A DNA stretch of 64,000 bases from a virus. Below, piece after piece: positions 23,656 to 63,741 of this stretch; the stretch's first letter is position 1; each line of letters starts with the position of its first letter. The stretch covers positions 9,233 to 73,232 of IMG/VR virus record IMGVR_UViG_3300005537_000023; one strand, given 5' to 3'. The position numbers were made by a program, and so were the translations under genes. Under the pieces are notes generated by a model. The model ran no database searches. It saw nothing but the letters and a program-made list of their open reading frames with translations, and was not told the origin of the DNA.

Positions 23656-23921
23656 TTACGCGTCGTCCGCGATTGGCCGTGGCAACGGCCCTAGCAGGTT
23701 CGGCGACCAGCGTCGGCGCACTGGACACCGGCGGTGCGGCGCTTGGTGCCGCGCAGGTCGTCGAGGTCGTCGGCGGGCATTCGCATCCGGTTGTGGTGAC
23801 AGGGGCGACGATCCTTGGCGCCGCGTTCGGCTTCCTCAAATTCGGCCCGCTTGGCGGTGTCGCCATCGCGGCCGGGACAAACATCGCCGGTCGGCTTATC
23901 GCCGCTCAGGTGCGAGACTGA
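23652..23921 (+). CDS. RPR/VG-leader small membrane protein, paralog of 22241
   Basis: MITRRPRLAVATALAGSATSVGA; GGHSHP...NIAGR matches GGHNHP...NIAGR. Confidence 0.7.
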   Translation: MITRRPRLAVATALAGSATSVGALDTGGAALGAAQVVEVVGGHSHPVVVTGATILGAAFGFLKFGPLGGVAIAAGTNIAGRLIAAQVRD

Positions 23922-39182: not shown

Positions 39183-40289
39183 TCACTTCCCACCTCCCCA
39201 CCCGTAGCCGAGTTTTTCGATGGCTTCTTTCGCGACGCGATCGCCGCGGCGATCGTAGCCGGCCGTCGTCTTTGGATTCGCATGCCCCGCGATGCCCTGC
39301 ACCGTCACCAAGTCCACGCCCTTGTCTAGCAAGCGCGAGATGAGGGTGCGCCTGAAATCGTGCGGCGACACCTTCTCCTTCAACTCCACGCTTTGCCAGT
39401 GCCGTTGCACGGCGAGATAGATGCCGGCAGGCGAGATGTGGCGGTAGATGACTTTGCCCACGCGCGTCATCGGGCAAACGAGTGGCCCCGCCGCCGTCCC
39501 GCGCACGCGCAGCCACGCGTCCATCCCCGCCTTCATGTCCGACGGGAACGGCACCTCGCGAGGCTTGCCGCCCTTGCCCTTGCCGCGCTGGACGGTGATC
39601 GATCCAGCATGCCCTGGCGACGGCGGCGCCTTGTAGTCCGCCGTGTCGAGGCCAGCGATCTCGAAACGGCGCAGGCCGCAACCGAGGCCGATGGCGAGGA
39701 TCGCGGCATCGCGGGCGCCGATGGGCGTGGCGAGATCGCAGGATGCCAGCAAGTCCACGATTTCTTGCTGTTCCATCATGCGTCCGGCCTTGGGCGAGTC
39801 CACCTTCACGCCCTTGCACGCCTCTTTGATGCCGTCGAAGTCGTCGCTGTTGATCAGCGTCTTGCCCCCCGCATCCTCGATGTAGCGGCATTGGTGCATT
39901 ACGCCTTTGAGTGCAGAGAGGGCCTGGCGGATGGTTGCCGGCGAGATCATGCCTGGCGCCCTCGCTCGCCTGCCGGCCCGCTTCGCTGACGGCCGCCCAG
40001 CCGCTAGCTTCGTCGTGTTGGTAAGCGTCAGCCTAATGAGGCGCGCGGACGTGTAACGGATCTTCGTCCAGTCGACGGAATAGATCGCCGTCATCGCATC
40101 CAAGCCGGCAAGCTTGGCATTGATAATTCGGGCGATGCGGGCGAGGGCGTCACGCATCGCACGCATGCCGCTGGGGCGGAGGCCGGCGAGGTAGAGGGTG
40201 ACCGGGTGCTGCATCCGATCGCCGGCCGGCGCCGGGAGGACGAGGGCGGAGAATGCGTCGGGTTTGGCGGTGGCAAGGGCGGTGGTCAC
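39183..40289 (-). CDS. int: Tyrosine recombinase/integrase
   Basis: RDAAIL...GLRRFEI, GKGKG, HDFRRT, GHANPKTTAGYDRR catalytic residues. Confidence 0.92.
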   Translation of the reverse strand: MTTALATAKPDAFSALVLPAPAGDRMQHPVTLYLAGLRPSGMRAMRDALARIARIINAKLAGLDAMTAIYSVDWTKIRYTSARLIRLTLTNTTKLAAGRPSAKRAGRRARAPGMISPATIRQALSALKGVMHQCRYIEDAGGKTLINSDDFDGIKEACKGVKVDSPKAGRMMEQQEIVDLLASCDLATPIGARDAAILAIGLGCGLRRFEIAGLDTADYKAPPSPGHAGSITVQRGKGKGGKPREVPFPSDMKAGMDAWLRVRGTAAGPLVCPMTRVGKVIYRHISPAGIYLAVQRHWQSVELKEKVSPHDFRRTLISRLLDKGVDLVTVQGIAGHANPKTTAGYDRRGDRVAKEAIEKLGYGWGGGK

Positions 40290-40491
40290 TGGCCCCCCGC
40301 GCGGCGTGCGGCCGACCACTCCGAATCCAACCTATCCAACTTGTCGAGCGCGCGGCGCATCTCTGCGCTGACGTGGCTATTCCGCCGCATCTCCGCGGCG
40401 GCAGCAGCCACACGGAGAAGTTGCCGCACGTAGCGCGGGTGCGAGCCATCGCCATGCTCCGCGAGCATCGTCACCCATTCCGCCAGGGTAG

Positions 40492-41988
40492 TCATCGATA
40501 CACCCACCCGATCATGTCCGAGTACCCTTCCCGGCAGACTCGTCCGAACCGCGCGCCCAGCCTGCACAGCGCATCATGGTAGCGCGCGCTCAGGTGGTTG
40601 CCTTCCGTGTGGTGCGCGAATTCGTGAAGCACCAACTCGATCACCTTGTCCGCCAGCGGATCGTCGAAGAAGCGCGCGCCCAGCGTGGACACGTTGAACC
40701 ACAGGTGCGGGCGCTTGTCACCGCCGCCCCACTGCGCCTGCACGGTGATCACCGGACTCTCGAAAAACTCCACGTCGATACCCTCAGCGCCGTCGAGGAT
40801 GCGCGTGCTGAGGAAGTCCACGAGACGGCGTGTGGACTTCATGCCCATCGTCTGCCTGTCCGGCGGGATCGTCGTGAAGTCGTCGCTGGACGGCGTGGAC
40901 ATGTGCGAGGGCGTCACCTTGCTGGCCGGAAGGATGGCGCCGGCGCGGCGCGCATTCTCCCATTCGCCCGCGGACATGGATCCGCCATGCACCACCACGT
41001 AGCCCTCACTCTTGGCGATGTCCTCGGCCTCGCGATCGTTGGGGTCCGGCGAGACGCGCTTGTCACCGAAGCGCAGATCGAGCACGCGCTTGATGGCCGC
41101 GTCGCTGCACCCGCTGGCGTCCGCCGCCTCGCGCACCCACTCGGCGGTGGCGTCCGTGGCGCCCAGCATGTCGTGCGCTTCGTTCAGTACGGCCACGCGG
41201 ATGTCTTTCAGGTAGCCGGGCGTCACGTTGTCCCGATCGGTGTTGAGCGGGATTTTCTGCCGGACGTCCACGTCGAAGGCGTCGCCGGTTTCCACCACGG
41301 GGATGCCCAACTCGTACAGCCAGCCGCTTTCGCCGGTGCGCGGGCGATGGAGGCGAAGAGACGTGTGGCGGTACTTGCGCGTCATGCGGCCAGTCTCATC
41401 CGCAAGCTCCGTAGCGAGGCACACGCTACCAACCGTCCGCACGGGCGCCGGCGATCGGATGTCCTCGCGGTTGATCCGCAGCGTCACGCCCTCGGGGACG
41501 AGGATGCGTGAGGCGCGGGTGATCGCGCGCTGCATCTCATCTCGCGTGATGCGCACCTCGGCGCGGAAGACGCTGCCCACAACCGTCTTCTCCTTCATCT
41601 TCCGGCGCGTGCCATCGGCCTCGAAGCGGACGCCGCCGGTGGTGCTGACGATCTCGGCCCACTCGCACCGCGCAATGACGAGTTTTTCGCCGAGGTTGAA
41701 GCGGCCACGCAACTCGGGGTCACCCTTCTTCGCGCTCTCGGCAAAGAGGACATAGGCGTGCGAGAGATCCACGAAGCCGGTGGGATCGTCGTCGCCCACC
41801 ACCACGAGGGCACGCGGCGCGTTGGGCATGGGCTCCACCGTCACCTCGACGGTGCGCGCCTTGGTGTCCAGCGCGTTCTGGATCAATTCGAAGAGGATGC
41901 TGGCCGGGTCGCGCGTGGCCAGCGTCTTCTCCAGGCCGCGCGCGTCCACCTCGAACCAGCCGCGGGCGAAAGGCTTCCGATCGTTCAT
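40492..41988 (-). CDS. GHKL (HSP90/MutL-like) ATPase with C-terminal HExxH motif
   Basis: ELIQNALD, DDDPTGF, RGRFNLGEK; LHEFAHH. Confidence 0.85.
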   Translation of the reverse strand: MNDRKPFARGWFEVDARGLEKTLATRDPASILFELIQNALDTKARTVEVTVEPMPNAPRALVVVGDDDPTGFVDLSHAYVLFAESAKKGDPELRGRFNLGEKLVIARCEWAEIVSTTGGVRFEADGTRRKMKEKTVVGSVFRAEVRITRDEMQRAITRASRILVPEGVTLRINREDIRSPAPVRTVGSVCLATELADETGRMTRKYRHTSLRLHRPRTGESGWLYELGIPVVETGDAFDVDVRQKIPLNTDRDNVTPGYLKDIRVAVLNEAHDMLGATDATAEWVREAADASGCSDAAIKRVLDLRFGDKRVSPDPNDREAEDIAKSEGYVVVHGGSMSAGEWENARRAGAILPASKVTPSHMSTPSSDDFTTIPPDRQTMGMKSTRRLVDFLSTRILDGAEGIDVEFFESPVITVQAQWGGGDKRPHLWFNVSTLGARFFDDPLADKVIELVLHEFAHHTEGNHLSARYHDALCRLGARFGRVCREGYSDMIGWVYR

Positions 41989-42230
41989 GGGCAACCTCCT
42001 ACGCCTGGTTTGACGGGCGAGGCTTCTACTTATTCATACCAGCCATTCGCGTGAGGATCAATCGGTGGCCGGCAACGCTTCCACGCGCCGCACAAGGCGC
42101 TCGTATTGCTCCATGGCCTCCGCTTCTGTCTCGCAACGCTCTTGCGTCTGATCGAGCGGGCCGCCGAAAACCATAGTCTCGTAATACCCCATCCTCCAAC
42201 GGCAATTCGACGACGCGCGGTCGAATACGG

Positions 42231-42939
42231 CATGCTTATCCGGTTGTCACCCACAGCGATTCGCCTTCCACAAATTCCCCAAAGCTGCACGCGCGCATTC
42301 GAGAACGTGAACGAGCAACGCCGCGTCTTCGTCGTGTCCGAACGCCGGAACGAATGGAGCGCTCGCCGGGTGAAGAATGCGAGCCGGATCGGTTCGTTGT
42401 TGGTGCTTTTCGACGATTGTCACCGCGAGGTCGACGACGGGGCTCCGATGAAACGCTCGGGCGGGGAAGCTGTAGCGATACCCGGCCGGAATGACGAACC
42501 TGACCGTCTCGACGGCGTAGCGTTCATCTGTCGGCGTCGTTGGACCGTGATATTTGCTGTCCGCCGCCGCGCGGGCGTGCGTAAGAAGCGTCGCCGTGAA
42601 GTCCCCACGGGGTTCCGCGGTCGCGTGCCACTCCTCGTGCACGACGTCACCAATGAGCACGTGGGAAACCATATCGAAGCGGTGATCGTGCACGTCGCCG
42701 TTCGCCTCGATGCCTGGCTTGATCAGGTCGGGATGCCACACGTGGACCCGGACCTCCGGCTCCGTGTGCTCGACGAGATATCCCTGCAACACGCCGATGC
42801 CGTGGTGTCGCCACGAGATCGACGGGAACGCGTGAAGCAGAGTGGCGGCGAGAGCGTGGTGCGCGTCGTCGCGAACGATTCGAGTCAGAGCGCTCATTTC
42901 CAAATCTCCCAAGTTGGGGGTGCTAACCGGATAAGCATG
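42231..42939 (-). mobile_element. Non-autonomous IS1595-type cassette (709 bp) carrying one passenger gene
   Basis: Perfect 15 bp IRs CATGCTTATCCGGTT (42231-45 and 42925-39); 8 bp direct repeat GAATACGG (42223-30 and 42940-47); no transposase. Confidence 0.88.
42247..42897 (-). CDS. Cupin/double-stranded beta-helix-like passenger protein
   Basis: RVHVWHP...DVHDHRFDMVSHVLIG...YSFPARAFH. Confidence 0.7.
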   Translation of the reverse strand: MSALTRIVRDDAHHALAATLLHAFPSISWRHHGIGVLQGYLVEHTEPEVRVHVWHPDLIKPGIEANGDVHDHRFDMVSHVLIGDVVHEEWHATAEPRGDFTATLLTHARAAADSKYHGPTTPTDERYAVETVRFVIPAGYRYSFPARAFHRSPVVDLAVTIVEKHQQRTDPARILHPASAPFVPAFGHDEDAALLVHVLECARAALGNLWKANRCG

Positions 42940-43517
42940 GAATACGGCAGTCCGCGCAGCCGACACCACTCCGCCAGCGTGTGCGTCACGCCGTCCAGTG
43001 TGATCCGAACGTTGGTGCTCATGTTGTTCTGCTGAACGAGCCGCGTTGTCCATCGGCAGTTGAAGGTATCGCCTCTTCGCAGGCAGTCGTCGCAGTGACC
43101 GCACGTGTACCCGCGCGCGTTGTCGATGCGGTCGATCTCCAACGTGGCCAGCGGGCGAAGGCCCATGTCTTTCAGGAACGATGCATACGAGTTCGACCAG
43201 CCGTCACACACACGGATTCCCTTCGCGCCGTAGAACTTGAAGGCGAAGTGTGACGGCCGTTGGCACTTGTGCCGTATCCGTTTCCACACCTCGTATTCCG
43301 GCTGCCGAGACATCCGATCTTTCGGGTCTCGTCCCAAGACGCGCGAGCACCCGCACGACGTGGCATGCCCGGACACAAGGTCGGTGGCGCGCAGCGTCTT
43401 CATTCGACCGCAGTCGCACAGGCACGACCAAAGGTGATGGCTGTTTCGTTTATCGACGTAGGCCACGCACGTCAGTCGACCAAATCTGTGGCCTTTCATT
43501 CCGTCGCACGCCATCAT
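42894..43517 (-). CDS. HNH homing endonuclease with C-terminus interrupted by the cassette
   Basis: RFGRLT, WSCLCDCG, SCGC, YGAKGIRVC, IDRIDN, NCRW; GLPYS continues as TARRRIAVGGW beyond the cassette. Confidence 0.85.
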   Translation of the reverse strand: MMACDGMKGHRFGRLTCVAYVDKRNSHHLWSCLCDCGRMKTLRATDLVSGHATSCGCSRVLGRDPKDRMSRQPEYEVWKRIRHKCQRPSHFAFKFYGAKGIRVCDGWSNSYASFLKDMGLRPLATLEIDRIDNARGYTCGHCDDCLRRGDTFNCRWTTRLVQQNNMSTNVRITLDGVTHTLAEWCRLRGLPYSMLIRLAPPTWEIWK

Positions 43518-43649
43518 CGCGCATCCCTCAGCCAGGCGAGGACGGCGCGGCGAAGGTCCAACAACGCGAACGTCTCTTTGAGTTGCCGCTGCGAACTGAC
43601 ATGCATGTCCGGCGGCTCCTCTTCGCCAACCACACGCTCGGCCGAGGGG

Positions 43650-44036
43650 TCATGGTGCGTTGTTCCTTCGATCGCACTCGGCCTGCGCTTCGCCGGTAGG
43701 CCACAATCGCGATTCAGGGTGCAACGTCCCGCACCCGTTGTCGGTGAACATGTAGACGAACAGCACCGGCCCCGACTCCTCATCGTCATCGATACCCGGC
43801 CGCACTGTTTCGGCGCGGATATTCCTGATTGTTCCGCGGTCGGTGATTACCCAACCGAAGCCGCGCGCCTCCGTCTCTTTTTTGCCGTGGCACTTCGGGC
43901 ACGCGTATCGCTCGCCGCGAAGCATGCACGTCCCTTCGCCCTCACATGCGCTGCATCGTTCTGGTGGGAGACGCACCGACGTCCGCGTGATCACCGACAC
44001 GACATCGCCAAGGTTGTACTTCGACTCGAACTTCAT
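43650..44036 (-). CDS. Phage protein with DnaJ-like CxxCxGxG zinc finger
   Basis: KYNLGD...CSACEGEG...CPKCHGK. Confidence 0.65.
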   Translation of the reverse strand: MKFESKYNLGDVVSVITRTSVRLPPERCSACEGEGTCMLRGERYACPKCHGKKETEARGFGWVITDRGTIRNIRAETVRPGIDDDEESGPVLFVYMFTDNGCGTLHPESRLWPTGEAQAECDRRNNAP

Positions 44037-59858: not shown

Positions 59859-60303
59859 TTCCGCTTGACGCAACGAAGCCCGACGCGGCAATATTGATCC
59901 CCTGCCCTAGAAAGGGCGAAGGCGCCGCAGCGGTTGGACGCTGGGCACCTTCTACGCCGAAACCTGATGCGGAGGTGCGACGGTGACTCTGGACGTACAG
60001 GAAAACGGGACGCAAGGCAAGCCGGAACGCGTCGCCATCATCGGATCCCGCGCGAAATACTGGCCGCACACCGACGTCATTTTCGCGCGTGATGCCGTGA
60101 TCGCCATCGTTGGCGGCCTACCCGCGGACGCTACCGTAATATCGCATGCTCATCCGGTTAGAGGGGATAGCCACGTGCATTCGGGTACTTAGGCCGATTC
60201 GACCGAAATCGACACCAATCCGCTTGACGGGGAGAATATCGAGGCTATCCTGTACTTCAGATGGATGACGGCGGGGCGCCAGACCCGCGGAAATGAGGAG
60301 ACC

Positions 60304-60543
60304 ATGATTACGATCACCAGCGCTCGAATCTGCCAGGGCTACACGGGCTGCGACCACCTGATCTCGCAGTCGGATTGCGACACCGTCGCGAACTTCGTCG
60401 GTCGTCGATTCGGTTCGCGCGCCGCTGCGCTGCGCGCCGTCAATCGTGCCTATTCGCGCGGCTGCGACCGTCGAGTGCGCACTGCGCGAGTCGAGATCGA
60501 CGTTCGGCTCGCGGACGGCTCGAACGTCTACAACATCGGCTGA
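60304..60543 (+). CDS. IS passenger hypothetical protein 1
   Basis: GAGGAG RBS; downstream of TTGACG-N16-TATCCT (60224-60251). Confidence 0.6.
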   Translation: MITITSARICQGYTGCDHLISQSDCDTVANFVGRRFGSRAAALRAVNRAYSRGCDRRVRTARVEIDVRLADGSNVYNIG

Positions 60544-60564
60544 GAAAAGAAAGGAGCCTGAATC

Positions 60565-60765
60565 ATGTACGCCGTCATCGATCAAGACTCTCCGAATTAC
60601 GGGCGCGTGCTCTCCACCCATCGAACCGAGAACGGCGCGGAAACGGCCGTCGAGAAGATCAACGCACGCATTCAGCGCAAATACGGACCCGAGAGTTACT
60701 TCGGCGGCCGAATCGTCGAAGTCGAAGGCGCGGTCAAGAAGGGCCAGCGGATTCGCTGGCGCTGA
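60565..60765 (+). CDS. IS passenger hypothetical protein 2
   Basis: AAAGGAG RBS. Confidence 0.65.
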   Translation: MYAVIDQDSPNYGRVLSTHRTENGAETAVEKINARIQRKYGPESYFGGRIVEVEGAVKKGQRIRWR

Positions 60766-60768
60766 CCG

Positions 60769-60930
60769 ATGGCCGTCCACGTCACCGAGATTCGGTTTGA
60801 GGTTGTCGTCGATGGCAAGCGCATCGTCGCCAGTTTCTTTCGCGACGAGAAGATCGCTTCGCTCGTCGCGTCGACCGATACGCTTGGAGGATTCTTGCGC
60901 GCGCTGATTGACAGCAGACAATCGAAATAG
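60769..60930 (+). CDS. IS passenger hypothetical protein 3 (53 aa; not in ORF track)
   Basis: MAVHVTEIRFEVVVDGKRIV... fills the gap before the transposase. Confidence 0.4.
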   Translation: MAVHVTEIRFEVVVDGKRIVASFFRDEKIASLVASTDTLGGFLRALIDSRQSK

Positions 60931-60987
60931 ACGGCCGCGCGTGGCGCCAACCACCGCGGCCCGGACCGAGAGGAGACCTCGATCACC

Positions 60988-62025
60988 ATGGAGTCTACAC
61001 CGTTGCCGTTCGCTCGTTCGCTCCCCGAATTTCAGAAGCTCTTCCCTGACGACGCCGCGTGCGCCGCGTACTTGGAGCGGTTGCGCTTCCCCGACGGATT
61101 CACTTGCCCCAAGTGCGAGGAGTGCGGCGAGCCGTGGCGCGTCGCGACGAGCGCGATCGTGCTTCAGTGCCGGGTGTGTAAGGCGAAGATGTCGCTCACC
61201 GCGGGCACCGTCATGCACCGCACGCATTCGCCGTTGCTCACGTGGTTTTGGGGCGCGTACTTGCTCACGTCGTCGACCCCCGGAATGTCGGCGGTCCAAT
61301 TCGCTCGGCAGATCGGCGTGAAGCGGTACGAGACGGCATTCCAGATTCTCCACAAGCTCCGCGCCGGTATGGTTCGGCCTGGCGTCGACCGCATCGGCGG
61401 CGATGGCGTCGACGTCGAGATGGACGAAACGCTCGTCGGCGGCGTGACACGCGGCGAGGGTAAGGGCGTGCACCACAAAGTCTACGTATGCGGCGCCGTC
61501 GAGGTGAAGCATCGTCCGCCTATTGCCGAGGGCGTCGAGCCGACGAAGGCGATGATGCGCCGTGCGGGCACCTACGCGGGCCGTCTGCGCCTCCGCGTGC
61601 TCGCCGACCGCACGAGTGACTCCCTGCTCGCGTTCGCGCGGGAGAGTGTCGCGCCGGGCTCCCACGTGACCACGGACGACTTCGGCGGATACGACCGGCT
61701 CGACATCGAGTGCGGATTGAAGCACACCGCCGTGCGCGAGGGCGGAGACCCGAGCATCGCGGAGAAGTTTCTCCCGCTGATCCATCTCGTGTTCTCGAAT
61801 CTCAAGTCGTGGTTGCTCGGCGTGCATCACGGCGTCTCCAATCAGCACTTGCAGGCGTATCTCAACGAATTCACGTTCAGGTTCAACCGCAGGTTCTACC
61901 CCTTCAACGCGTTCCGATCGTTGCTCGGACTCGGCGTCGCGTCGGAATCGCCGACGTACGACGCGCTCTACAAAGGCACGTGGGAGCACCCCGTTGCCGC
62001 TGGGCCTTTTCAGCTAACCGGATAG
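60988..62025 (+). CDS. IS1595-family (ISXO2-like) DDE transposase
   Basis: CPKC...CRVC zinc ribbon; VEMDET; TTDD; HLQAYLNEFTFRFNRR. Confidence 0.95.
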   Translation: MESTPLPFARSLPEFQKLFPDDAACAAYLERLRFPDGFTCPKCEECGEPWRVATSAIVLQCRVCKAKMSLTAGTVMHRTHSPLLTWFWGAYLLTSSTPGMSAVQFARQIGVKRYETAFQILHKLRAGMVRPGVDRIGGDGVDVEMDETLVGGVTRGEGKGVHHKVYVCGAVEVKHRPPIAEGVEPTKAMMRRAGTYAGRLRLRVLADRTSDSLLAFARESVAPGSHVTTDDFGGYDRLDIECGLKHTAVREGGDPSIAEKFLPLIHLVFSNLKSWLLGVHHGVSNQHLQAYLNEFTFRFNRRFYPFNAFRSLLGLGVASESPTYDALYKGTWEHPVAAGPFQLTG

Positions 62026-62400
62026 GTGTCATGTGCGATCGACCTTTCGTCACCGAAAACCGGATGAGCATGTAATATCGGGCGATTCGCCTGGCGGAGG
62101 CGCCGATCAGTGGGCACGCACGGCCGCAGACCTTCACGCCGCGCCTTTCATCGCGCATTGGCCGGGCACGTACACGAAGCGCGGCATGCCGTTTCGCGAG
62201 GCCTGCTTCACACGCAACACCGATATCGCCGCGGACTGCACGCGCCTAATCTCCGTCTGCCCAACGCGCAAGCCCACGGCGGGCACGCTGGACACGATGC
62301 GGAAGGCGAGGGCGCTGGGGAAGCGGGTGACGCTCGTCGTTGTGGCGAATGGGCGAGTTGAGGCGTTGGAGTGGGATGGCGGGGAAGGGGAGGCGTTGCG

Positions 62401-63741
62401 GTGAGCGAATGGATCAAATTCCACGCTGAGCTTTGCGACGGCGAAAAGCGTGGCATTCCCAGAAGCGCCAGGTTTATTTTCCTGGAACTGTCCCTGTTAG
62501 CACGCAAGCGTCAGGGCGAAGTGGTGTGCGTGAAGGCTCCAACGCTGGTGAAGGCGGTTTGCGATCTGATCCGGGGGGACATGGCTGAGGTGAAGCGTGC
62601 GATCCCGGTACTGATGCACCACCAGATGATAGAGGCCGAAGAGACGGAGTCATCCTGGATCGTGCGAATCCCGTCATGGGCTCGCTGGAATTCGTTCGAC
62701 AAATCGACCGATCGGGTTAGCGCCATGCGCACCCGTAGGCGCGAGAATCAGGCCGAGGACCTTGTGTATTTTGCGCAGCGAGAGAGCGGCGGGCCGGTGA
62801 AGATAGGCCACTCCGATAACGTCAGGGACCGTCTGACGAACATCGCGCGCGAGTGTAAGGAAAGAATCCGCGTACTGCTGCTGCTTCCTGGTGGGCAGCC
62901 AGTCGAGGCGGAATTGCACAAGAGGTTTGAGGTGACGCGGCTTCGCGGCGAATGGTTCGCTGTGGAAGATCGACTGACTGAATTTATCGCCGCGAACGCG
63001 TTACACGACAAGTTGCACGAGGTGTTTCGTGGTGTGTTTCCCGAACCGTTGCTTGGCCCGTTGCGCGAATCGTTGCCCGATCAGCCGCGCGCACCCGCGC
63101 ACCCGCCCGCGCCCTCTCCCTCTTCTTCTCTCTCTTCTATTTCTTCTCTTATTTCACAGTCTTATCTCGTAACTGCACCGTCTCAGCCCCGCGCGCGCGA
63201 GGACTTCGACCCGGCCGACAAGGCCGCCCGCTTGGTGCTGGCTCGACGCGACTTGTGGCCGGCGGAGTTCGTGACGGACGCGGAGATCGCCGCCGTCGTG
63301 TCGCGCTGCCGTGCCGCCTGGCGTGACGAGCCGGCGGCGAAGCGCCTCGGGCTGACGCTGGAGCATGCCTTGCGCGAGGCGATCAACGACGCGCAGATGT
63401 ACGGCAAGCGCTACACGTCCGCGACGCCGGAGCAACTCCTCGCACGCATCGAGCAGCGGGTGGAGTGGATTCTTGGCGAGTGCCGCAGTGGGCGCCGCAA
63501 GGCCACCGTGGTGGCAACGGAGTCCGACGTGGCCGACGACGCGCGGGACAGTAGGGAGGCCACGGAGAGGTGCCTGGCCGCCGATCGGGCCCACGCCGAG
63601 GCCGAGCGTGAGAAGACGCGCGCCTTCGCCAACGATCCGGCGGCGAAAGCGAAGCGCGCGGCGGACTTGGCGAAGCTGGCCCAATCGGCAGCGCCGGAGC
63701 AATTCACGAGGAAGGCTGCGCCGGAAGGGGGTGGGAAGTGA
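62401..63741 (+). CDS. Phage replication-initiator-like protein with internal GIY-YIG (T5orf172-like) domain
   Basis: WIKFH...IPSWARWN...STDRV N-terminus; VYFAQ...VKIGHS...EAELHKRF...GEWF. Confidence 0.7.
   Translation: MSEWIKFHAELCDGEKRGIPRSARFIFLELSLLARKRQGEVVCVKAPTLVKAVCDLIRGDMAEVKRAIPVLMHHQMIEAEETESSWIVRIPSWARWNSFDKSTDRVSAMRTRRRENQAEDLVYFAQRESGGPVKIGHSDNVRDRLTNIARECKERIRVLLLLPGGQPVEAELHKRFEVTRLRGEWFAVEDRLTEFIAANALHDKLHEVFRGVFPEPLLGPLRESLPDQPRAPAHPPAPSPSSSLSSISSLISQSYLVTAPSQPRAREDFDPADKAARLVLARRDLWPAEFVTDAEIAAVVSRCRAAWRDEPAAKRLGLTLEHALREAINDAQMYGKRYTSATPEQLLARIEQRVEWILGECRSGRRKATVVATESDVADDARDSREATERCLAADRAHAEAEREKTRAFANDPAAKAKRAADLAKLAQSAAPEQFTRKAAPEGGGK

Follow-up and report, generated by a model that had tools for sequence, protein, structure and literature searches.

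The DNA analysed here (the window; 64,000 nt) comprises bases 9233-73232 of the viral record IMGVR_UViG_3300005537_000023, a 73,232-bp sequence with direct terminal repeats that is rated complete. Since the window encodes an integrase (39186-40319), an endolysin and a tail-fibre-like protein, together with a helicase, a DNA methyltransferase and a sliding clamp, the virus is taken to be a temperate, tailed phage. At window positions 42231-42939, a 709-bp unit that is bounded by 15-bp inverted repeats and carries a single gene was found within a gene for an HNH endonuclease. This unit very probably represents a mobile insertion cassette, i.e. a transposase-less member of a lineage of the IS1595 family of insertion sequences (IS), with ISAcr1 as the closest named element, which was presumably inserted by a transposase acting in trans. 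The unit is an ordinary member of a family of such elements identified in viral contigs, and it is this family that represents a new, phage-borne and unusually modular form of a known cassette type.

The cassette and the gene that it interrupts

The repeat CATGCTTATCCGGTT is present as an exact copy, in inverted orientation, at each end of the unit (15/15), and the unit is flanked by a perfect (8/8) direct duplication of GAATACGG (Table 1). A repeat search of the window identified four exact 15-mers and one 13/15 match, compared with a chance expectation of 0.21 at up to two mismatches, and none of 100 shuffled sequences reached five matches. Across the entire 73,232-bp record, just those four copies were found, and a backwards control returned none. 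The lone 13/15 match (CATTCGCATCCGGTT, 23778-23792) has no partner and falls within the chance expectation. Searches, including those with Pfam and PHROG, did not reveal a transposase match inside the 709-bp unit, which thus combines two inverted repeats and an 8/8 target duplication with the absence of a transposase, i.e. the features of a mobile insertion cassette. A 48-kb contig from an independent assembly of the soil metagenome run that is the probable source of the record spans the region without differences.

The sole long open reading frame (ORF) of the unit covers 94% of its length. Its stop codon is located 1 nt from one repeat and its ATG 42 nt from the other end of the unit, with a Shine-Dalgarno sequence (GGGAG, 42906-42910) 8 nt upstream of the start codon. 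The earlier note on this DNA had described a 709-bp unit with perfect 15-bp repeats (14/15 identical to those of an IS elsewhere in the window), an 8-bp duplication and a cupin-like gene as its only gene; this anatomy was found to be accurate to the base, and the gene assignment agrees with the single long ORF and with the cupin fold of the predicted structure.

The 192 codons upstream of the insertion match two HNH endonuclease families, phrog_374 (4e-44) and phrog_3377 (3.6e-33). With an intact homologue encoded at viral-contig locus L123, the alignment extends as far as the residue that immediately precedes the insertion (GLPY versus GLAY in the homologue), beyond which the homologue has 65 further residues, and in silico removal of the unit and one copy of the duplication restored a 257-aa ORF. 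As regards the claim that the unit interrupts the HNH gene, the break in the upstream alignment and the restored ORF are thus in favour, the similarity of the downstream remnant to the homologue (a G-W-containing motif, RRRIAVGGW versus KYRLNKGW) being apparent by eye only. The truncated HNH frame continues across the repeat as far as a TGA (42894-42896), which overlaps the cargo start codon (ATGA). No sigma-70-like promoter or terminator was found in 41900-43900. Because the cargo gene points in the same direction as the interrupted HNH gene, it is probably transcribed by read-through, and the sequence suggests that it is probably translated from its own Shine-Dalgarno sequence, with the truncated HNH frame ending on its start codon.

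The cargo protein was shown to match phrog_4784 (5.4e-15), a family of unknown function, and 268 homologues were identified in metagenomes. It did not match any Pfam or NCBIfam model, cupin models included, and sequence comparison with the PDB yielded a chance-level match only. An AlphaFold model based on 36 homologues (predicted local distance difference test score of 93.2) was compared with the PDB using Foldseek, which returned 135 matches at E≤0.001, the top-listed ones being of the cupin/JmjC type. The closest solved structures were JmjC-type ribosomal oxygenases, sugar isomerases and cysteine dioxygenases, with template modelling (TM) scores of up to 0.41; the closest viral models are uncharacterised (TM scores of up to 0.68, to a Caulobacter phage protein), and the matching Atlas structure clusters are named cupin, nothing more specific. 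According to the model, the protein has a cupin, or double-stranded beta-helix, fold. Residues H70, H72, D75 and H150 are invariant or nearly so in the 36 homologues, with a spacing that resembles, by eye only, that of the metal ligands in the two cupin motifs. A profile scan of viral contigs identified 13 cupin homologues and, with up to three mismatches allowed, no repeat was located at 100 nt or less from any of these genes; three of the 13 contigs contain single, chance-level three-mismatch matches 137 to ~2,000 nt away. Elsewhere, the cupin gene is an ordinary phage gene, and the single-protein scan of viral contigs did not detect a second cupin cassette.

Table 1. Features of the cassette, the interrupted HNH gene and the resident IS in the window, and of a small relative in other viral contigs
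Feature	Position	Strand	Basis or remark
Target-site duplication of the cassette, copy 1, GAATACGG	42223..42230		in line with the family target consensus (T at -2, A at +2)
Terminal inverted repeat CATGCTTATCCGGTT, cargo-distal (right inverted repeat in cargo orientation)	42231..42245	+	exact match; extension GTCACCCACA resembles T-lineage ends
Cargo gene, predicted cupin / double-stranded beta-helix fold, 216 aa	42247..42897	-	ORF, phrog_4784, predicted structure
Left-end leader with Shine-Dalgarno sequence	42898..42924	-	read directly from sequence
Terminal inverted repeat, cargo-proximal (left inverted repeat in cargo orientation)	42925..42939	-	exact match; extension AGCACCCCCA resembles T-lineage ends
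Target-site duplication of the cassette, copy 2, GAATACGG	42940..42947		identical 8-mer abutting the unit
HNH endonuclease gene, 5' part, 192 aa	42940..43517	-	phrog_374, phrog_3377; alignment with L123 breaks off at the junction with the unit
Putative 3' remnant of the HNH gene (66 in-frame codons beyond the duplication)	42030..42230	-	restored 257-aa ORF
Target-site duplication of the IS, copy 1, TAATATCG	60137..60144		direct repeat
IS1595-family transporter IS, 1928 bp, ends CATGCTCATCCGGTT	60145..62072	+	repeats, duplication, transposase
Three passenger ORFs of 92, 66 and 53 aa, preceding the transposase gene	60265..60930	+	ORF calling
Transposase, 345 aa, N-terminal Zn ribbon and DDE_Tnp_IS1595 domain	60988..62025	+	PF12762, PF12760, NF033547
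Inner degenerate right-end copy (AACCGGAT...CATG), overlapping the transposase stop codon	62016..62033	-	read from sequence
Target-site duplication of the IS, copy 2, TAATATCG	62073..62080		direct repeat
241-bp miniature inverted-repeat transposable element (MITE)	L023:3334-3574; L362:6787-7027; L369:6883-7124; L379:4245-4479		no convincing ORF

A cassette family with diverse cargo in viral contigs

A scan of viral contigs for the 15-mer with Y at position 7 yielded at least 118 loci, including 41 inverted pairs less than 4 kb apart, of which 32 have a perfect 8/8 duplication. With relaxed criteria (up to two mismatches in one repeat and up to one in the duplication, the other repeat being exact) and additional scans for the C variant (complete, 53 loci) and for the T variant with 20 specified bases (at least 119 loci), at least 107 distinct elements with repeats and duplication were catalogued from 235 viral loci and the window. 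This catalogue, with its very diverse cargo, is the outcome of a scan for flanked repeat pairs that the earlier note had proposed. A full transposase gene is present in 17 of the 107 elements (1628-2563 bp), each of which contains at least 550 nt of other DNA, located upstream of the transposase gene in 15 cases and downstream in two. One further element (L011) encodes a partial transposase, which, together with the 89 others, brings the non-autonomous elements to 90 (192-1983 bp, median 529 bp).

The non-autonomous elements were shown to have a common layout. In 71 of the 90, one ORF accounts for at least 70% of the length, starting at a median position of nt 44 and ending a median of 28 nt from the far end, and the leader motif class ACCTACTAGAT was found in 35 of these 71 cassettes, with 22 of their ORFs beginning with ATGTTG. 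As both the start position and the leader match those of ISAcr1, in which ACCTACTAGAT precedes the transposase ATG at nt 48, the cargo occupies the position of the transposase gene in a minimal IS. Between elements with unrelated cargo genes, the end modules (40-75 nt) exhibit 86-100% identity (for example, L034 versus L103, and L025 versus L070). Furthermore, the 15-mer that forms the ends of the window cassette occurs exactly at one or both ends of all 13 T-variant autonomous elements listed, the other end differing at no more than two positions.

The passenger ORFs of ten autonomous elements are mutually unrelated, except for one 41-residue match, and are therefore regarded as cargo rather than as accessory transposition genes. 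The C5-methyltransferase that L027 carries as a passenger exhibits 53% identity to the cargo of cassette L103 (over 212 aa) and 44% to that of L085, and the passenger of L122 matches the cargo of cassette L112. The same cargo families thus occur in autonomous and in transposase-less forms.

Near-identical cassettes were found at different sites. Elements L008 and L076 are copies of a 365-bp cassette with 98% identity, different duplications and unrelated flanks, and a 241-bp non-coding relative (Table 1) is present at four sites in four viral contigs with 95-99% identity; two further cassette pairs, 83-86% identical, are likewise located at different sites. The 106 non-redundant insertion sites define a palindromic target consensus, T(-2) N | N W W Y R W W N | N A(+2), with an AT content of 0.66 in the duplications compared with 0.41 in the flanks. 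The site of the window cassette fits this consensus, having T at -2, AATA at positions 2-5 and A at +2. The AATA core that the earlier note had observed in both targets in the window is in agreement with, and is explained by, this family-wide consensus. Certain duplication strings are common to different elements (e.g. GGAGAAAC in L024 and L064); same-site replacement of cassettes was considered as an explanation and rejected, as the flanks are unrelated. Approximately 34 of 54 cargo ORFs are located on the majority strand of their flanks, and many insertion sites have no spanning ORF of at least 100 aa; both observations rely on crude ORF calling, which is noisy in GC-rich DNA, and the former on a count by hand. 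Given the diverse cargo, the near-identical cassettes elsewhere and the common target consensus, the idea of a gene-delivery system within phages, as advanced in that note, characterises the family reasonably well.

Clustering of the top ORFs from 88 cassettes yielded 76 clusters. Scanning of 78 cassette ORFs with Pfam and PHROGs provided a functional name for 20, half of which are DNA methyltransferases (D12, N6/N4, C5 and Dam-type; n=10: L016, L079, L035, L070, L033, L085, L103, L107, L113, in which the gene is split in two ORFs, and L388). The others are Mom-like proteins (n=2: L013, L372), PAPS-reductase-like proteins (phrog_424; n=4: L006, L102, L109, L343) and single representatives of NADAR (L330), radical SAM (L350; below the Pfam cut-off, PHROG-supported), RlaP-type nucleotidyltransferase (L366) and TnpB (L063). 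Enzymes of the DNA-modification type thus account for 16 of the 20 named cargo genes and 16 of the 78 scanned, a proportion given here without comparison with the background of phage accessory genes.

The 1156-bp cassette L063:1253-2408 has as its sole cargo a 367-aa TnpB (Cas12f1-like TNB and OrfB_IS605 domains; phrog_506, 1.9e-68), which from its sequence is a predicted RNA-guided nuclease that travels in a cassette of a DDE transposon; as the ORF stops 16 nt short of the element's end, there is no room for the usual downstream guide-RNA region. The 594-bp cassette L330:127-720 encodes a NADAR-domain protein (PF08719, 2.7e-26). NADAR enzymes reverse the ADP-ribosylation of DNA, and this cargo would fit a counter-defence role.

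Resident IS, transposase source and alternative origins

The window contains, 17 kb from the cassette, a second element with related ends, a 1928-bp IS whose repeats (CATGCTCATCCGGTT at 60145-60159 on the plus and 62058-62072 on the minus strand) are perfect over 15 bp and identical to that of the cassette at 14 of 15 positions. IS1595 elements are described as generating an 8-bp duplication and encoding a single DDE_Tnp_IS1595 transposase with an N-terminal zinc finger, the latter absent only in the IS1016 group (PMC8101967, in the text concerned with the family). The resident IS has the 8-bp duplication, the C-terminal DDE_Tnp_IS1595 domain and the N-terminal zinc finger, yet its three extra ORFs depart from the single-gene organisation and make it a passenger-carrying form. 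Its transposase matches PF12762 (3e-29, profile positions 6-153 of 153), PF12760 (1.3e-10, residues 20-66) and NF033547 (4.6e-50; 170.5 bits, cut-off 75). Alignment by hand placed the catalytic residues in MDET, TDDF and IHLVFSNLK, i.e. D, D and H, with K at +7, and the D, D and H..K motif residues are present in all transposase sequences compared. The enzyme is the sole copy in the phage and, judging from these features, looks intact. The passenger ORFs did not match any family and are not conserved among the other autonomous elements.

The IS also interrupts an ORF (60137-62404), as its removal restored a 162-aa frame; another ORF begins within the IS at GTG 62033 and continues in frame through the right repeat into the downstream part. 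A motif-based guess that this gene encodes a DUF2493/SLOG-type protein was dropped, as neither half matches Pfam or PHROG. The degenerate inner copy of the right end (Table 1) lies ~25 nt (62034-62057) inside the functional right end, and the transposase ORF of the three other C-variant elements extends into the repeat, stopping 5 nt before the element end. The inner copy suggests end replacement or nesting.

With regard to the origin of the cassette, a DDE transposase of this lineage, supplied in trans, would, after binding to the terminal repeats (15-25 bp), have integrated the unit within the HNH endonuclease gene of the phage, with a staggered cut leading to the duplication of 8 bp. The cupin-fold enzyme would have been acquired as cargo from the ordinary phage gene pool, its ORF coming to stand at the position of the transposase gene in a minimal IS, and the transposase could have been provided by the resident IS, another phage or the host chromosome. 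The earlier note had matched the cassette to the resident IS. In agreement with the proposal that the resident enzyme mobilised the cassette and still does so, the two elements have repeats with 14/15 identity, 8-bp duplications with an AATA core and, in both, perfect repeats and duplications suggesting recent insertion, and the apparently intact transposase is the only one in the phage. However, position 7 of the repeat is C in the resident IS and T in the cassette, and this base tracks the transposase phylogeny: in a tree of 17 transposases, the four C-variant elements form one group (support 94/96), which amounts to two lineages because L303-L305 are near-copies, and the 13 others carry T. 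The window transposase exhibits 67-68% identity to those of L303-L305 and 57-62% to T-variant enzymes. The extensions of the cassette beyond the 15-bp core (AGCACCCCCA / GTCACCCACA) also resemble the T-variant lineage, whereas the subterminal sequence of the resident IS has diverged, so that the proposed match is not a specific one. Furthermore, an IS1595-type transposase was found in 6 of 25 cassette-bearing viral records and in 5 of the 16 that are at least 90% complete; its absence from the remaining 11 of these 16 indicates that co-residence is not needed and that the enzyme usually comes from elsewhere. Bacterial genomes with many copies of the family could supply it. Relatives of the transposase were found in 6812 of 8000 scored clusters at E≤0.001, including a copy in a Hyphomicrobium chromosome with 65% identity, and a Terriglobia genome (G026) contains 36 repeat copies, most of them ~110 nt from contig ends, indicating that a multi-copy IS broke the assembly. 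Cross-mobilisation by the resident enzyme would be possible at 14/15 identity, and a host or co-infecting source appears at least as likely; the proposal that the resident transposase moved, and still moves, this cassette is accordingly considered rather doubtful.

Two other accounts do without transposition of a cassette. The unit might never have moved as such, being what remained in place of a passenger-carrying autonomous element after deletion of its transposase gene. Such decay is consistent with the partial transposase in L011, with a remnant at G015:C1:26954-27163 (in the record of L069), in which transposase residues 6-30 and 294-339 adjoin in one 126-aa frame, and with the occurrence of common cargo families in elements with and without transposase. 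Nevertheless, only 1 nt separates the cargo stop codon from the repeat, and no vestige of a transposase 3' end is present; near-identical transposase-less elements occupy different sites; and the common layout (start near nt 44, stop ~28 nt from the end) could have arisen in this way only if an identical, precise deletion had taken place many times, making this account improbable. It is still far less probable that the repeats are a product of chance or assembly, next to an ordinary phage cupin gene and a naturally short HNH gene. The cupin homologues in 13 other viral contigs do stand in repeat-free contexts, and read support is at the contig level only; on the other hand, four exact 15-mers were found against 0.21 expected, along with two 8/8 duplications, over 100 further elements have the same ends, the 48-kb contig of the independent assembly spans the region without differences, and the alignment with the HNH homologue breaks exactly at the junction. 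Insertion of a cassette in trans is thus clearly preferred, notwithstanding several points that weigh against it. The downstream HNH remnant alone has no Pfam or PHROG match and no BLASTP similarity to the homologue, and the absence of a second cupin cassette among the 107 listed elements means that the case for mobility of this very unit is drawn from its family. An empty-site allele, which the earlier note had put forward as a check, was sought in viral contigs, metagenome contigs and public runs, all in the form of assembled contigs, and none was found for this phage: the HNH gene has three relatives in viral contigs (42-45% identity), none of them near, and the neighbouring 500-aa gene has relatives at 20 metagenome loci (up to 48% identity), none with an HNH gene upstream. 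Contigs from two public runs, the second of which covers ~200 nt of the neighbouring gene only and at lower identity, contain no joints and no polymorphism, and have no bearing on excision. In addition, the proportions in the catalogue may be biased because it represents a lower bound and listed matches required one exact repeat; not all entries are independent, with L006 and L097 representing the same insertion in near-identical contigs and L035 and L391 containing abutting or nested elements; and viral-contig calls are computational, with 16 of the 25 records checked being at least 90% complete.

The G015 remnant is an internal-deletion derivative and a possible intermediate between autonomous and non-autonomous forms. 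In the Terriglobia genome G026, three tandem 59-bp units, each beginning with the repeat, are located at L141:6344-6520. Bacterial MITEs were also found, two of 101 bp in another Terriglobia genome and three of 111 bp in a Nitrospira genome, and one copy examined of each type has an 8-bp duplication. The abundance of the family in viruses and bacteria cannot be compared, as the at least 120 bacterial loci listed are mostly single chance-level matches across all phyla. The complete, 104,614-bp record that contains L039 (G011) encodes four IS1595-type transposases with 27-65% identity to that of the window, i.e. several lineages of the IS1595 family occur in one phage.

Relation to known elements and exchange of cargo

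The closest named element, ISAcr1 (annotated as IS1595-like element ISAcr1 family transposase by the Prokaryotic Genome Annotation Pipeline, in Acidiphilium plasmids), encodes a transposase that is 59% identical to that of the window over 97% of the length, and its repeat CTTGCCTATCCGGTTGAC agrees with the window core at 12 of 15 positions. It differs in being a minimal, 1080-bp transposase-only IS of bacterial plasmids, compared with the 1928-bp phage IS with three passenger ORFs, and the copy of ISAcr1 examined has no clean 8-bp duplication. The ends CATGCTTATC / CATGCTCATC fit the pattern nnnGcnTATC, and this pattern and the D-D-H-K motif would, as a lead only, place the IS in the ISSod11 subgroup of the ISfinder table. 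Passenger-carrying IS1595 forms are known for other subgroups (ISPna2+, ISNwi1+), ISSod11-type elements measuring ~1.0-1.1 kb; in contrast, all 17 autonomous viral-contig copies listed carry at least 550 nt of extra DNA. ISSod11 is named as a subgroup of IS1595 in passages of PMC7371123 and PMC8101967.

Mobile insertion cassettes are defined, in the passages of PMC3913671 that deal with them, as elements bracketed by IS inverted repeats, without transposase and with a target duplication. According to the same passages, the prototype, MIC231 of Bacillus cereus, is mobilised in trans by the transposase of IS231A (PMC3913671). MIC231 and the qnrD and qnrS2 mic elements resemble the phage cassettes in having IS repeats, no transposase, a target duplication and cargo that replaces the transposase. 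The phage cassettes differ in that they are of the IS1595 rather than the IS231/IS4 type and reside in phage genomes; in that they form a large, modular family (at least 90 non-autonomous elements, 76 cargo clusters); and in that their nameable cargo consists mainly of DNA-modification enzymes instead of resistance genes. MPME1 and MPME2 of mycobacteriophages are likewise small elements bounded by inverted repeats that lie in phage genes and at different sites in related phages (PMC3029335). An MPME1 copy is described there as being 439 bp in length, with a 6-bp addition at the left end and without a transposase of its own, and MPME consists of two related elements for which the corresponding text mentions no autonomous partner (PMC3029335). 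For the phage cassettes, the transposase family is known, a target consensus is defined and dozens of different cargo genes are represented, and identification of the window cassette with MPME is ruled out by its length of 709 bp and its direct 8-bp duplication. Classification as a MITE, i.e. a small, non-coding element, is also ruled out, as 94% of the unit is one conserved ORF.

A description of IS1595-type cassettes in phages was not found in the literature, as covered by the main texts of mostly open-access journals. Queries of GenBank phage records returned a single match to the transposase, at 26% identity, and none to the conserved 60-nt left end or to the whole cassette, and a cultured phage with this cassette family was not found by these three queries. 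Phage genomes are mosaic, and the movement of single genes between them is mostly attributed to illegitimate or homologous recombination. The interest lies in the family rather than in the window element: one sequence-defined transposon chassis with at least 76 cargo families in uncultivated phages represents a concrete vehicle for genes, and the nameable cargo is mostly made up of DNA-modifying enzymes of the kind used by phages against restriction. If active, the cassettes would provide a mechanism for part of the turnover of counter-defence genes in phages, their boundaries would flag cargo of unknown function, such as the cupin, as candidate host-interaction genes that may benefit the phage, and they would constitute a compact natural tool for the insertion of genes into phage genomes.

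Integron gene cassettes have been reported in phage genomes (PMC9892861). They resemble the phage cassettes as promoter-less single ORFs that are exchangeable units with short conserved ends, and some of the phage cassettes abut (L035, L391); in contrast, integron cassettes depend on a tyrosine integrase acting at attC/attI in one platform, whereas the phage cassettes have a DDE transposase, terminal repeats and a target duplication, and are dispersed. A broader possibility, which is entertained tentatively and falls somewhat short of being probable, is that soil phages share a transposase-driven exchange of cassettes, integron-like without an integrase. The standard chassis would consist of the terminal repeats, a leader (~45 nt) with a stop, a ribosome site and an ATG, and ~30-40 nt at the right end, and in this chassis almost any single ORF could replace the transposase. 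Transposases on sister elements, in phages or host chromosomes, would move the cassettes in trans, thereby spreading counter-defence cargo (orphan DNA methyltransferases, Mom, PAPS-reductase-like enzymes, NADAR and possibly the cupin) among unrelated phages, and new cargo would be captured through nested and abutting ends.

Such ends were indeed observed. Internal repeat cores are over-represented, with 12 in ten elements compared with ~2.6 expected, comprising, for example, the inner right end of the window IS, inner left ends (L303-L305, L084) and back-to-back ends (L035, L391). The back-to-back ends in L035 and L391 indicate two abutting cassettes in each, small cassette arrays may exist, and nested or abutting ends would be a plausible route to the capture of cargo and to passenger-carrying forms. 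Full internal copies of the repeat were located in L035:4470-5985, L391:3546-4580, L102:6784-7872 and L343:8906-9794. In the 2253-bp autonomous element L099:6158-8410, the transposase gene is preceded by an 83-aa ORF whose first 17 residues share 88% identity with a transposase N-terminus, the remainder diverging into Zn-ribbon-like sequence. This ORF represents a duplication of the transposase gene's 5' end and hints at a recombination event there.

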